64,000 nt of DNA from positions 12,007 to 76,006 of the forward strand of contig CAWDNB010000003.1 in assembly GCA_963803585.1 (NCBI GenBank). The letters run 5' to 3'. Below, piece by piece: positions 40,143-48,112 of this stretch (positions are counted from its first letter, which is position 1; each line of letters begins with the position of its first letter). Position numbers and translations under genes: made by a program. Under the pieces are notes generated by a model that worked only from the letters and a program-made list of their open reading frames with translations, ran no database searches and was not told where the DNA came from. This DNA is from an uncultured Alphaproteobacteria bacterium (lineage in GTDB: Bacteria; Pseudomonadota; Alphaproteobacteria; Sphingomonadales; Sphingomonadaceae).

Positions 40143-40384
40143 AAACCGGGGGTAGAAATTCGATTACGGCATTTGCCGTCAACGGTTCATGGTCGGGTAC
40201 GAACCGGTCGCCGATAACGCATTTCGTGCGCGGTTCGCCCATCAAATCCGCCGCAGCGGGATGAAGCACAGCCAGATGCGCCCGCAAGTCGCCGATCGTG
40301 CTGCAGGGGGCCGGTACCACCACATCGGCCATTTGCACCGATCATCGCCGCCAGCGGACCGTAAAAGCGCACCTGCACATTCAT
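40132..40384 (-). CDS. moaD: molybdopterin synthase sulfur-carrier subunit MoaD, frame-broken at about 40339
   Basis: N-terminus MNVQVRFYGPLAAMIG (ATG 40384) is in one frame. The C-terminus ...VIEFLPPVSGG-stop is in ORF 40132..40338. Confidence 0.8.
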
Positions 40385-43300
40385 TGCGCGATTTCGCTGC
40401 ATATGCCGATATCGATATCCTGCCGCACCAGATCCGCTTCGTAACCCACGGTGATGGTATAATCCTGCGCGGCGCACAAATCCAGCCGCCCGGCCTGGGT
40501 TTCATCCAGCGCAACGGCATAGGTGCCGGGCTTGACGCGTTCGAAAAAGAAATATCCGTCTATCTCGGTCTTGGCGAATTTCACGTCCTTGCCGGATGTG
40601 TCACGCAGTTTGAGCCGGACACCGGATACGCCCTTGGTCGTGCCGTCTTGCGTGAACCGCAGCGATCCTTCCACCTCGCTCAAGGCCACGATCGCGAAAT
40701 CCGCACCATGGATGCGGCCGGGGCGGGGGACGATTTCGATCCCTTCGGTTGCAGGGGCCAGATCGATATCGGGCAGGCTGGATTCATCGATTTGCAGGCT
40801 GACCCCGCGACCGGGGCTGAGATTGCCGAGCCTGGCGATGCCGCGCGCATCGGTAGGTACGGCATTGTTGAAGGCGACGATGGATATATCGGGCAGGGGT
40901 GTATCGCCCGGTCCGAACATGCCATCCCCGTCCAGATCGCGGAAGGCACGCACGGATGCGCCCCCGCTGCCGGACAGACCCGGGCGCGCCAGAAAGAACC
41001 TGCCGCCGACCGGATCGCGCCCGAAACTGAACCCCAGCCGAAGCCCGATCGAATGTTCCTTGCGGTCGACGGCATAGGCACCGTCCAGCGCCAGGCTGAA
41101 CCGGTTGAAATCGCGAACCGCGGACAGACCCAGCTGAACCGATCCGGTGTCGAACAGATAGCCGACCGAACCGCGAATGGCCGTGTCTTCATCCAGCGCG
41201 TGATCCAGCTCCAGCCCCGCCGAAACGATATCGGGCTGCGGCAGTATCTGGTAACCCAGCGACAACCGCCCGCGCGTGCGCGACCGGCCCAGCGTGGTCA
41301 GATCGAAATTGCCGAACAGGCGCGACTGCGTGCCCAGTCGGTCGAACCGGGTCTGTGTATAGTCGAATGTGTTGGATGCCAGCAGGCCGGAAAACCGGCT
41401 GGACGCACGCAGCGTCGCATCGAATATGGTCTGGCCCTGTGCGGTTTCCACCCGGCGGGCACGGGCGGTAATCGGCACGATCAGCCCGCTGACGGGATTG
41501 CCGATTTCCAGTGTGGTGTTGAAATCCAGTTCGGTGGCGCGGGTCAGAAATTCACCCCCGCCGCCGCGCGTTTCGTCGATGAAATCGCCCGAATATTCGA
41601 TATGCGACAGGGTGACGGCCGAACCGCCGATCCGCCCGCCGATGCCCCCGCTAAGGGCAAATGCCCCGCCATCGCCCGCAGCAAGATCAGCCTTCAGCGC
41701 AAACCCGCCAAAGCCGGTGCGGATGCCGGCGGTGGAAATCCAGCGCTGGCGTTCGTCCGCCTCGAACACAGCGCCGCTGACAATAGCGGTGATGGCAGGG
41801 GAGACACCATAGGCCACTTCTCCACTGGCCCGCCAGGTTCCAAAATCGCGGGGGCGGATGAAATCCGGCGGACGCACGCCCAGCAGGTTTTCATCCTTCT
41901 GCACGGCGCCCATACGATAGACGAGCTTGCCCGTTGGCAGCCGCCCGTCGCCCACGCTGATGCGCCTGACCTGTTCGCTGCGTTGCCCCTGCGGCCCGAA
42001 GAATACCAGGCGAAAGACATTCAGTCCGAAATCGACGGGCGTTTGCAGAAATTCATATTGGCCGTTCACCGCATCGCGTGTCGATCCGACCAGGATGTCG
42101 TTGCGATACAGCTCCACCTCGAACCCGTCGGGCAGAATGCCGCGCAGATCGATCCGTTCGAATACGGATACTGTTTCGGAAGGCGCATTGGTCAATGCAA
42201 TACCGCGCCCGGCCACGCTGCGCAGGCCCAGCGGCATGGATATGGTCGCGACATCGCCCAATGCAAAAGCGGTCGCCGCCAGCGGGCCCAACAGCTGCGC
42301 ATCGGGGTCCAGCCGCCCGACTTTGATAAGCGACGTGGTCAACCCGTTTGCGGTATCCGCGCCGATGAAGCTTTCCGCTGTTAGAAACCCCAGATCGCCC
42401 GCAAATTGCAGATCGAGTTCCGCACGCGAACCGAAACTGGAATCCGACAGCGCGCGCAAATCGACATCCACCACCGGCAACGATGCCAGCAGATAGGGTG
42501 TGTCCTGCCGCGCGAAAATCTTGTCCTGCTGCACGCCGCTGCGATTGGCAAGGCGCGCGCGATCCGCCTCGCGCCGCATTCGTTCTTCGAAAGGAAACGG
42601 CTCCAGCGTGGTCAGCGTGACGGTCTGCGCGCGCAGATCGGTCTCTACCGTCAGCGGCAGGAAATCGGCAATCTGGCTTGCGAGCAGGAACAGATCGCCA
42701 TCGAAAGCCACGGCTGCGCCTACCGGCAGTTTCTGTTCCCGGCCTGCAAGATCGATACTGCCGCGCCGCACATCGATCGTGATCGTACGGTCGGGGTCCA
42801 GCACCCAGCCATTCGCATAATTACCATCATCGCCGACGGTAATCGCCAGATCGAGAATACGGGCCAGCGTACCCAATGGCAGATACACGCCCTGACGTGT
42901 GCCGTAAGCCAGTATGGTATCGCTGGCATCGATGCCCTTCACCTGAATTTCCAGGATCAGTTCATCCTGGTAGTCGAGCACCGGTGGCTGGTCGGAAAGC
43001 GTAAAGCCGCTGCTGCGTTCCTGCGCGAGATTGCCTGCGCCTGTGCCGGACAGGGGCGATTGCGGGGTTTCCTGGGCAGCGGGCTGCGGCAGGTCGGTTC
43101 CCAACCCCAAAGTGGTTCGTGTCCGGTTCGGCGGGATGACGGATGGATTTTTGGGAACGGGGCTGGTGCCGGCATAGATAGCGGGAAGAGATACGGTCTG
43201 GCGCAGCGGCGACCCGGTCTTGGCGATAGTCTTGCCGCCGTTGTCCGCAATGCGCGCAGGCGCCTGTGTGGCAGCGTTGTTGCTAAAATTGTTGGCAGTG

Positions 43301-47509: not shown

Positions 47510-47557
47510 GGTGACACCTGCATAACACGTCGGGACGCGGCGTCGTGCGCCTTTCGT

Positions 47558-48112
47558 CTATCTGACCGAAATCAGGACGGCATCGACGGGGATGGGAATT
47601 TCCACCCGCCCGCCGCCGAAATCGCGTTCGACATCCAGCCGGGCGCCAACATGGAAGGATTTGGTGCAGACGCGCTGCACGCAATCCGCAATCTCGATAT
47701 CCACGATGCGGCCAGCCTGCACGCTGGCGGCGCCGGGCAGATCGCTGCGATAGGATGACAGGCGGGCGCTCACCCCGCCCCGGCTTACGTTCGGCGTGGC
47801 AGACAGCACCAGCTGGATGCGCAGATCGAGGCGCCGACGGCTATTGTTGCCGCGATCGTACACTATGGTGAACCGGGCGGGCGCCGTATCGCCGGCGGTG
47901 ATCGAAAACAGACCTGCACTCTGCACCGCGCCGGTCGGGCTCACGATCCGGTATCCGTCATCCATGACGGCAAAGGCGCCGAACCGAAGGTCGCTGTCGC
48001 TTACGATGCTGAGCTGGCGCGGTGCGGCGGTTGCGGCAGGCGCGCCGATTGCCGTAACGGGCAGCAGTACCGCACAAACAAGCCGGGCATAGTGAAAGAC
48101 GGACCGATTCAT
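47558..48112 (-). CDS. DUF4402/SCPU-like secreted fibre subunit (paralog 1, divergent)
   Basis: Signal peptide LVCAVLLPVTAIGAPAATA. QLSIVSDSDLRFGAFAV. It has a different C-terminus and two Cys residues (IADCVQRVC). Confidence 0.5.
   Translation of the reverse strand: MNRSVFHYARLVCAVLLPVTAIGAPAATAAPRQLSIVSDSDLRFGAFAVMDDGYRIVSPTGAVQSAGLFSITAGDTAPARFTIVYDRGNNSRRRLDLRIQLVLSATPNVSRGGVSARLSSYRSDLPGAASVQAGRIVDIEIADCVQRVCTKSFHVGARLDVERDFGGGRVEIPIPVDAVLISVR

Follow-up and report, generated by a model that had tools for sequence, protein, structure and literature searches.

A probable divergent chaperone-usher locus with DUF4402 proteins in a Sphingomonadaceae genome

Gene order, DUF4402 proteins and the g3 region

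The stretch of DNA analysed here (the window, 64,000 nucleotides) comes from contig CAWDNB010000003.1 of assembly GCA_963803585.1 (positions 12,007 to 76,006), which belongs to an uncultured alphaproteobacterium of the Sphingomonadaceae. On the minus strand, at 40381-48112, it carries six consecutive co-directional open reading frames (ORFs), referred to as g1 to g6. The first four encode small proteins with a DUF4402 domain, namely g1 (47558-48112, 184 aa), the putative minor subunit g2 (46952-47509, 185 aa), the candidate major subunit g3 (46270-46770, 166 aa) and a second putative minor subunit, g4 (45524-46216, a maximal ORF of 230 aa). They are followed by g5 (44478-45479, 333 aa), predicted to be a PapD-like two-domain chaperone, and by g6 (40381-44481, 1366 aa), an usher-like protein. 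A sequence-only reading of this DNA had proposed a chaperone/usher-like surface-fibre locus with DUF4402 subunits, a proposal that is supported by the predicted fold of the chaperone, the predicted architecture of the usher and the conservation of the gene set. In our judgement, the locus most likely encodes a complete, highly divergent chaperone-usher (CU) assembly system, in which the four DUF4402 proteins are the polymerising subunits.

The genes are closely spaced, as had been described, with all six ORFs present and gaps of 48, 181, 53 and 44 nt from g1 through g5, after which g5 and g6 overlap by 4 nt. The stop of g5 and the start of g6 had been thought to overlap as ATGA; the actual overlap is GTGA, with a GTG start for g6. 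The start of g5 is probably at 45425, giving 315 aa, the length called for an identical database protein. The start position of g4 is uncertain. There is no ATG, GTG or TTG at the position where its orthologs start, and 46216 marks the upper limit of the ORF only. One in-frame option, a TTG at 46216 directly after the g3 hairpin described below, leaves a 66-residue presequence; another gives a 17-residue signal peptide without a charged N-region; a CTG start would give a textbook signal peptide.

All four small proteins exceed the Pfam gathering threshold for DUF4402 (PF14352; 25.2 bits), with 39.2 bits for g1, 85.7 for g2, 83.0 for g3 and 65.9 for g4 (E-values of 1.3e-9, 5.4e-24, 3.7e-23 and 7.3e-18, respectively). 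Each carries a signal peptide, and no NCBIfam model matches any of them. That they are secreted paralogs is borne out by this membership and by pairwise BLASTP similarity far above chance, with 30% identity between g3 and g4 (E 1.6e-17) and 26% between g2 and g3 (E 3e-11), g1 being the outlier among the four. The N-terminal motif that they had been said to have in common, xxP(I/L)S(I/V)...L.FG, is present and is kept in the orthologs gathered from 80 related loci. In g2, g3 and g4, an N-terminal extension is found between the signal peptide and P(I/L)x(I/V)....L.FG, with the consensus G-x-A-x-A-x-(V/I)-(V/I)-x-P, the Gly of which is invariant in an alignment of 53 sequences. The extension is missing from g1 across 69 orthologs. 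The distance from the h-region of the signal peptide to L.FG is 20 residues in g1, 32 in g2 and 35 in g3, within tight ranges (67-113 orthologs).

At the other end of these proteins, the C-terminal G.Y.G...V.Y tail attributed to three of the four paralogs was also confirmed; it is kept in the orthologs and absent from g1. The g3-type proteins have a Gly at position -14 and a penultimate Tyr in 113 of 113 orthologs, and the g4 orthologs have Gly(-14) in 81 of 81 and a penultimate Tyr or Phe in 81 of 81. The penultimate Tyr is present in all 67 g2 orthologs and Gly(-14) in 21 of these 67, while g1 orthologs have neither. The combination of Gly(-14) and a penultimate Tyr is the C-terminal signature that CU pilins, such as the Pap and Fim subunits, show to their chaperone. 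Two conserved Cys are found in g1, and g2 has a conserved Cys pair. The g3 protein begins with the signal peptide MKKIILATVAAIVAVPAAAA, followed by APGD, continues with an N-terminal extension (...NGTAVAEIVSP), and terminates in AAGSYTGTYAATVAYN. The signal peptide and the Gly/Thr/Ala-rich sequence that had been listed as hallmarks of a major subunit were found; Thr, Ala and Gly make up 53% of the protein, which contains no Cys.

The g3 gene is also distinguished by its flanking DNA. It is preceded by its own leader of 181 nt (46771-46951), whose length and low GC content (0.46, vs 0.627 for the window) agree with the earlier description, and a long intergenic region before g3 is kept in the related loci (median length 190 nt, median GC 0.54). 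An alignment of 14 leaders reveals a conserved block of ~38 nt, GTAACAGTTCGTTAAACCCTAGGTACTAATCCTTATGG (46864-46901), in which a TTAA is invariant and CTAGG...CCTAG form an imperfect inverted repeat; the invariant columns over these leaders are T59, T62-A65, A71, G73, T77, C82 and T84. One ortholog has CTAAG...CTTAG, with both repeat arms altered. A promoter scan of the g3 leader found no sigma-70 consensus promoter. The conserved block may act as promoter or operator, or may form a small RNA hairpin.

Downstream of g3, a GC-rich hairpin (46218-46245) is formed by CACCGGGCGGGC-AACC-GUCCGCCCGGUG. A perfect 10-bp hairpin had been placed right after the g3 stop; the GC-rich hairpin is real, although its stem has 12 pairs including one G.U, closed by a 4-nt loop, and it begins 27 nt past the stop. 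In its 73-nt context, the folding energy is -34.1 kcal/mol (z = -5.0 vs shuffles). A terminator scan did not call this hairpin because no T-run adjoins it. A strong hairpin follows 111 of the 113 g3-type genes in other loci, with differing sequences, and the median best 45-nt energy after g3-type genes is -30.5 kcal/mol, vs -14.5 to -18.7 after g1, g2 and g4. We regard the g3 hairpin as a probable intra-operon attenuator or mRNA-stabilising 3' structure. Two Rfam matches in the region, mir-981 at 44270-44348 (+) with 25.7 bits (gathering cut-off 51) and PtaRNA1 at 46185-46250 (+) with 23.8 bits (gathering cut-off 47), the latter on the opposite strand over the g3 hairpin, are both below the cut-off and were taken as chance.

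In Novosphingobium, the g3-type gene is present in two or three copies in tandem upstream of the chaperone gene, at times joined by an additional g4 (loci L038, L043, L044, L049, L052, L053, L055-L057, L064-L066, L068, L071, L074 and L075), and each g3-type copy examined there is followed by its own hairpin. These copies may reflect a diversification, perhaps antigenic, of the subunit.

Predicted folds of g5 and g6

At the sequence level, g5 has a faint match to Pfam PapD_N (E 0.3), as do 13 of 43 orthologs below threshold, and no PapD_N or PapD_C match above threshold. Neither phmmer with g5 nor the family profile found a chaperone among PDB sequences. The UniRef names of some orthologs are pili assembly chaperone or molecular chaperone, so that automatic annotation already hints at a CU system. 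An AlphaFold (AF2) model built on the 43 orthologs has a mean predicted local distance difference test score (pLDDT) of 84.9; residues 1-37, comprising the signal peptide and a linker, are disordered and are followed by two beta domains. When this model was compared with the PDB by Foldseek, the matches were mainly pilus chaperones, with CsuC first (6fqa_A, 7.8e-10), together with YadV, Caf1M, FimC, CfaA, DraB, SafB and CupB2. The CU chaperone matches have E-values from 1e-9 to 1e-7 and target-normalised template modelling (TM) scores of 0.52-0.62. The description of the 333-aa protein as secreted and PapD-like is thus upheld by a two-domain chaperone fold in the model and by CU chaperones as the top structural matches. 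CsuC is ahead of the classical chaperones by less than 10x in E-value, a margin that does not assign the system to the archaic CU clade. A low-confidence loop of 30 residues (166-195) lies between the strands 154-165 and 196-205 of g5. The strand after this loop, PRFGISIPIIVRV, is the most conserved motif of the family, and the invariant PRFGISIPIIVRVG, the most conserved motif of g5, is a candidate G1 donor strand in the model. No Cys occurs in the mature g5 sequence.

The g6 protein starts with a signal peptide and lipobox, MTRKRTVRNAGTVCVGTVLLGLG followed by C (residues 1-24, LLGLG-C; 44410-44481). It had been described as an outer-membrane lipoprotein; the lipobox LLGLGC is present, but it is kept only in the nearest clade, the orthologs beyond having a hydrophobic N-terminus without Cys. 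Residues 25-490 (43012-44409) form a low-complexity extension rich in Pro, Ala and Thr, presumed from its composition to be disordered, which is between ~40 and ~520 aa long in the orthologs. Within it lies the motif LPRPVFG (residues 59-65; 44287-44307). Of 63 orthologs, 41 have the pattern [LIVYFA]PxPxF[GS] around residues 58-74, vs 0.57 expected by shuffling. The conserved core comprises residues 491-1366.

The AF2 model of the g6 core (pLDDT 92.7) has the architecture of an usher throughout, in agreement with the usher-like core that had been claimed. The predicted usher N-terminal domain occupies core residues 17-135 (42607-42963), as delimited by the model and the FimD/PapC alignment, and a linker helix (core 140-157) joins it to a beta-barrel translocation domain, assigned by DSSP and Foldseek to core residues 180-665 (41017-42474). 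The barrel has ~24 long strands and, at ~core 248-354 (41950-42270), an inserted beta5-6 hairpin with a small beta domain at the plug position, the strand count and this position being read from the DSSP string only. Two C-terminal domains complete the core. The first (core 672-760; 40732-40998) was delimited by the model and the usher alignment, and the second (core 766-876; 40384-40716) is a transthyretin/SdrD-B-like beta-sandwich.

In the Foldseek search, the top 17 matches of the core are all FimD or PapC, the ushers of type 1 and P pili. Full-length FimD (3rfz_B) scores best, with an E-value of 1.6e-27 over ~925 aligned columns, and the PapC/FimD translocation domains 2vqi, 3fip and 3ohn follow with E-values from 3e-15 to 4e-13 and target-normalised TM scores of 0.53-0.57. 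Unrelated proteins come next, namely SdrD at 4e-10, aligned through the last domain only, and LptD at ~1e-6. FimD and PapC therefore align with the model over its whole length, and they have the same domain order, with an N-terminal domain, a barrel with a plug region at a similar position and two C-terminal domains. They differ from g6 in that sequence identity is 11-13%, with no similarity at the level of hidden Markov models (HMMs), in the helix that joins the N-terminal domain to the barrel in g6, and in the transthyretin-like nature of its last domain. In Pfam, this last domain alone is matched, by SdrD_B (E 4e-9), CarboxypepD_reg and SpaA, and a profile match to SdrD in the PDB falls on the same domain. 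A phmmer search of g6 against PDB sequences gave nothing relevant, and NCBIfam assigned no family to any of the six proteins, with only two far-sub-threshold SdrC/SdrD domain matches for g6. Faint matches to Pfam Usher occur in 2 of 10 distant g6 homologs, and faint Cu_amine_oxidN1 matches fall over the N-terminal domain in g6 homologs.

Conservation and spread of the gene set

When one genome of each GTDB species was scanned with a pattern, 117 loci encoding a g5 relative were returned, of which the 80 kept are all from Sphingomonadales and fall in the genera Pontixanthobacter, Parerythrobacter, Qipengyuania, Erythrobacter, Aurantiacibacter, Porphyrobacter, Altererythrobacter and Novosphingobium. 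The order g1-g2-g3(xN)-g4-g5-g6 is kept in every Sphingomonadales locus with sufficient contig reach, and nearly all related loci keep the 4-nt overlap between the g5 stop and the GTG start of g6. Flanking genes are common only to the nearest Pontixanthobacter genomes, from which it follows that the six genes travel as a unit.

Two neighbours deserve mention. An apparent MoaD-like ORF at 40187-40384, directly adjoining the stop of g6, was dropped because the related loci have no ortholog of it. Directly upstream of g1, a glutathione-S-transferase-like gene (48138-48800, minus strand) has an apparent frameshift, with the break near 48300-48310: compared with its Pontixanthobacter ortholog, frame -3 covers residues 1-211 and frame -1 covers residues 193-254. 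A single surplus T in TTCTATCCGC would account for the frameshift, which is either that of a pseudogene or an assembly error. As a result of it, an ORF at 48109-49077 extends into the start of g1 (ATGA overlap).

Beyond the Sphingomonadales, a search with full-length g6 was swamped by the low-complexity N-terminus (2 matches), and the core was searched alone. At E <= 1e-3, an exhaustive HMMER search with the core gave 4,053 cluster representatives, and at E <= 1e-30 it gave 1,566 (50% identity clusters). Most of these homologs are ~900 aa long and without the long extension, and some of the weaker matches may involve only the last domain. Among eight distant loci sampled (25-42% usher identity), the usher-like gene adjoins a 258-309-aa protein and one to four DUF4402 genes in seven; the 258-309-aa neighbours have no Pfam match or a faint PapD_N match. 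These distant loci include a Polaromonas plasmid (Betaproteobacteria), Pseudoalteromonas (Gammaproteobacteria) and metagenomes, and the RefSeq name of their usher is carboxypeptidase regulatory-like domain protein. Taken with the Sphingomonadales loci, they support the view that these genes have stayed together, both in the related genomes sampled and far outside them.

Two of the more distant arrangements are worth noting. In one locus (L081, 6051-10751), a distant usher homolog is preceded by proteins of 308 and 285 aa without Pfam match, and there is no DUF4402 gene; a different subunit family may be served there by the same type of usher. In Pseudoalteromonas xiamenensis (L086, 2410-8350), the DUF4402/chaperone/usher module lies between two genes with a SPOR (peptidoglycan-binding) domain, which may be relevant to envelope anchoring in lineages without the long usher extension.

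A proposed model of fibre assembly and its alternatives

The subunits themselves are approached here through profile comparisons. With a slightly broadened DUF4402 profile, hhalign aligned Caf1, the F1 antigen subunit of Yersinia pestis, end to end over 127 columns with a moderate probability of 65%. This alignment pairs the DUF4402 extension (..tAtAxVVxP..) with the donor strand of Caf1, TATATLVEP, and the C-terminus AAGSYTGTYAATVAY with AAGKYTDAVTVTVSN. A narrower profile scored 28.5 against Caf1, vs 11.1 +/- 1.9 (maximum 15.6) for 100 composition-matched shuffles. The CsuA/B, Caf1 and PapD reference sequences used are 100% matches to their PDB copies. An Ig fold that lacks its G strand, with the N-terminal extension serving as donor strand, is likely for the DUF4402 subunits, with indirect support from these comparisons and from the presence in g2-g4 of the extension with its invariant Gly.

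Prediction or comparison underlies the conserved gene order, the motifs, the hairpin conservation, the assignment to DUF4402 and the folds of g5 and g6; we infer the subunit fold, donor-strand exchange, the order of the subunits, the fibre itself and its role, and we propose the following mechanism. The subunits g1-g4 would be exported by Sec, and each would be capped in the periplasm by g5 through donor-strand complementation, probably by means of the invariant strand, with g5 recognising the subunit C-terminus at Gly(-14) and the penultimate Tyr. The chaperone-subunit complexes would then dock on the N-terminal domain of g6, the presumed outer-membrane usher, where the subunit being added would use its N-terminal extension (G-x-A-x-A-x-[IV]-[IV]-x-P) to displace the chaperone strand by donor-strand exchange. 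The growing fibre would exit through the unplugged barrel of ~24 strands, while the two C-terminal domains would hold the last complex.

The distal tip of CU fibres is a subunit able to accept, and not to donate, a donor strand. As g1 has no N-terminal extension, it is a candidate for the tip, and thus for the subunit incorporated first. We propose g3 as the major repeating subunit, in view of its own leader, its conserved 3' hairpin, its tandem duplicates in other genera and its lack of Cys, and g2 and g4 may be minor adaptor or terminator subunits. The leader and the 3' hairpin could give an excess of g3 transcript over that of the assembly genes, an excess of the major pilin transcript being known from the pap and fim operons. 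The GTGA overlap could couple translation of g5 and g6 and, together with the hairpin, set the stoichiometry, with much subunit and little machinery. It can be speculated, from the likeness to Caf1 and the Thr/Ala/Gly-rich, Cys-free composition of g3, that the fibre is thin and flexible, or a polyadhesin, rather than a rigid rod. By analogy with known systems, a role in adhesion or biofilm formation is most likely.

Several observations weigh against this proposal. The DUF4402 profile has no match among PDB sequences, and the 53 DUF4402 proteins match neither SCPU (PF05229) nor Fimbrial nor any other Pfam pilin family, even at an E-value of 10; the hhalign alignment with the SCPU profile (CsuA/B relatives) extends over the last 20 columns only. 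Pfam Usher (PF00577) does not match g6 even at an E-value of 10, a family profile of 56 g6 sequences found no usher among PDB sequences, and hhalign gave no alignment between the g5 profile and PapD. With no match in sequence between g6 and Usher or between g5 and PapD, the relation of both to known CU proteins is one of predicted structure. The candidate tip g1 is a single domain, unlike the tip adhesins of characterised CU systems, which usually have two. Finally, the ~465-aa extension of g6 has no counterpart in FimD or PapC, and we know of no usher with a comparable tether. Taken as a whole, the system would have the defining features of CU systems in its predicted folds and its gene organisation, and it lacks the Usher, PapD_N, SCPU and Fimbrial signatures.

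A question of classification, compatible with the mechanism proposed above, is whether the system belongs to the archaic (sigma) clade of CU systems (Csu, CupE, Mcu/spore-coat-U), DUF4402 being a diverged SCPU domain. The parallel with this clade had been drawn specifically in the sequence-only reading. The csu operon of Acinetobacter baumannii (CsuA/B, A, B and E, all SCPU proteins, with CsuC and CsuD) likewise encodes several small paralogous subunits, followed by a chaperone and then by an usher; in structure, g5 matches CsuC best; and a C-terminal strand motif, G.Y...V.V.Y/F, is held in common and aligns with the SCPU profile with a probability of 60-71%. Csu, CupE and Mcu are, moreover, environmental biofilm-type systems outside the Enterobacteriaceae, as the present system probably is. 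Against this assignment, none of the 53 DUF4402 proteins matches SCPU, the small lead of CsuC over classical chaperones carries little discrimination, and CsuA/B alone scores 15.9 against the DUF4402 profile, in the range of its shuffles (11.5 +/- 2.1). The single-domain candidate tip g1 opens the operon, whereas CsuE has two domains and is encoded last; the usher escapes Pfam Usher, ends in an SdrD-B-like domain and, in this clade, bears a lipobox and the Pro/Ala-rich extension. The sole end-to-end alignment of the subunits is with Caf1, from a classical system of the gamma3 type with an F1-G1 long-loop (FGL) chaperone (Caf1M/Caf1A/Caf1). Caf1M is also among the top structural matches of g5, and the long, poorly ordered loop before the candidate G1 strand of g5 may recall FGL chaperones, which have a long F1-G1 loop and a conserved disulfide. 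The Caf1 system nevertheless differs in having one subunit type vs four paralogs here, its chaperone class has a disulfide where mature g5 has no Cys, and neither its usher nor its chaperone has a detectable sequence relation to those described here. We therefore consider membership of the archaic clade rather unlikely, and since the subunits are not SCPU proteins, the system should not be filed as archaic Csu/SCPU.

Other explanations would change the function rather than the name. A pore and a chaperone might export DUF4402 domains that do not polymerise and that form surface or released monomers, or a loose layer, instead of a fibre. Such a reading would agree with the absence of sequence matches to solved pilins and with a g1 that has neither pilin-like motif, yet we hold it to be improbable: small and hydrophobic residues alternate in the extension, which has an invariant Gly and aligns with the donor strand of Caf1; g3 and g4 keep the C-terminal signature of pilins without exception; and several paralogs of which one is without the extension form the pattern of an ordered polymer. 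To our knowledge, all characterised systems with a PapD-like chaperone and an usher assemble polymers. It could also be argued that g6 is a porin or transporter with a transthyretin-like domain that merely neighbours functionally unrelated DUF4402 genes, as might be gathered from the RefSeq naming of its homologs only as carboxypeptidase regulatory-like domain proteins and from the missing Pfam Usher match. This is strongly disfavoured, and we give it hardly any weight, in the face of a full predicted usher architecture separated from other barrels by ~17 orders of magnitude in Foldseek E-value, an overlap of its start with the stop of the chaperone gene that nearly all related loci keep, and co-occurrence with DUF4402 genes across three proteobacterial classes. 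Type V pili of Bacteroidia and sortase pili, which are without a PapD-like chaperone and usher, were rejected because both proteins are present here; the SpaA/SdrD-like matches are confined to the last domain of the usher.

The divergent CU system with polymerising DUF4402 subunits thus remains our preferred explanation. The searchable literature yielded no paper mentioning DUF4402 or PF14352, in agreement with the earlier statement that no fibre, receptor or phenotype has been assigned to this family, and nothing relevant on CU systems in Sphingomonadales or on AlphaFold-based discovery of usher-like systems. On balance, we lean towards a wider proposal, in which a large CU clade, undescribed in the literature searched, builds its fibres from DUF4402 proteins; this clade would extend over Alpha-, Beta- and Gammaproteobacteria and comprise at least ~1,500 usher clusters (50% identity). 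Sequence surveys would have been blind to this clade because its ushers escape the Usher HMM. The same proposal includes an Erythrobacteraceae usher tethered by a lipid anchor and a proline-rich LPxPxFG extension of ~300-500 aa. Through such a tether, pilus assembly could be linked to a further component of the envelope, a coupling known to us from no other usher.

The locus extends a well-understood textbook mechanism and is not a new kind of machine; it is most likely a widespread version of the CU system, whose pore protein and DUF4402 subunits are unrecognised by standard annotation. If this is true, a Pfam domain of unknown function would acquire a testable function as a pilus or polyadhesin subunit, and the matching chaperone and usher families, now annotated as hypothetical, molecular chaperone or carboxypeptidase regulatory-like proteins, would be identified. 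Members of the usher-like family are found in Sphingomonadales that are abundant in the sea, in fresh water and in soil, and some are carried on plasmids. As the Usher HMM misses so large a family, CU censuses based on this HMM would undercount adhesive fibres in environmental bacteria, and the family would provide very distant comparison points for the evolution of ushers and of donor-strand exchange.

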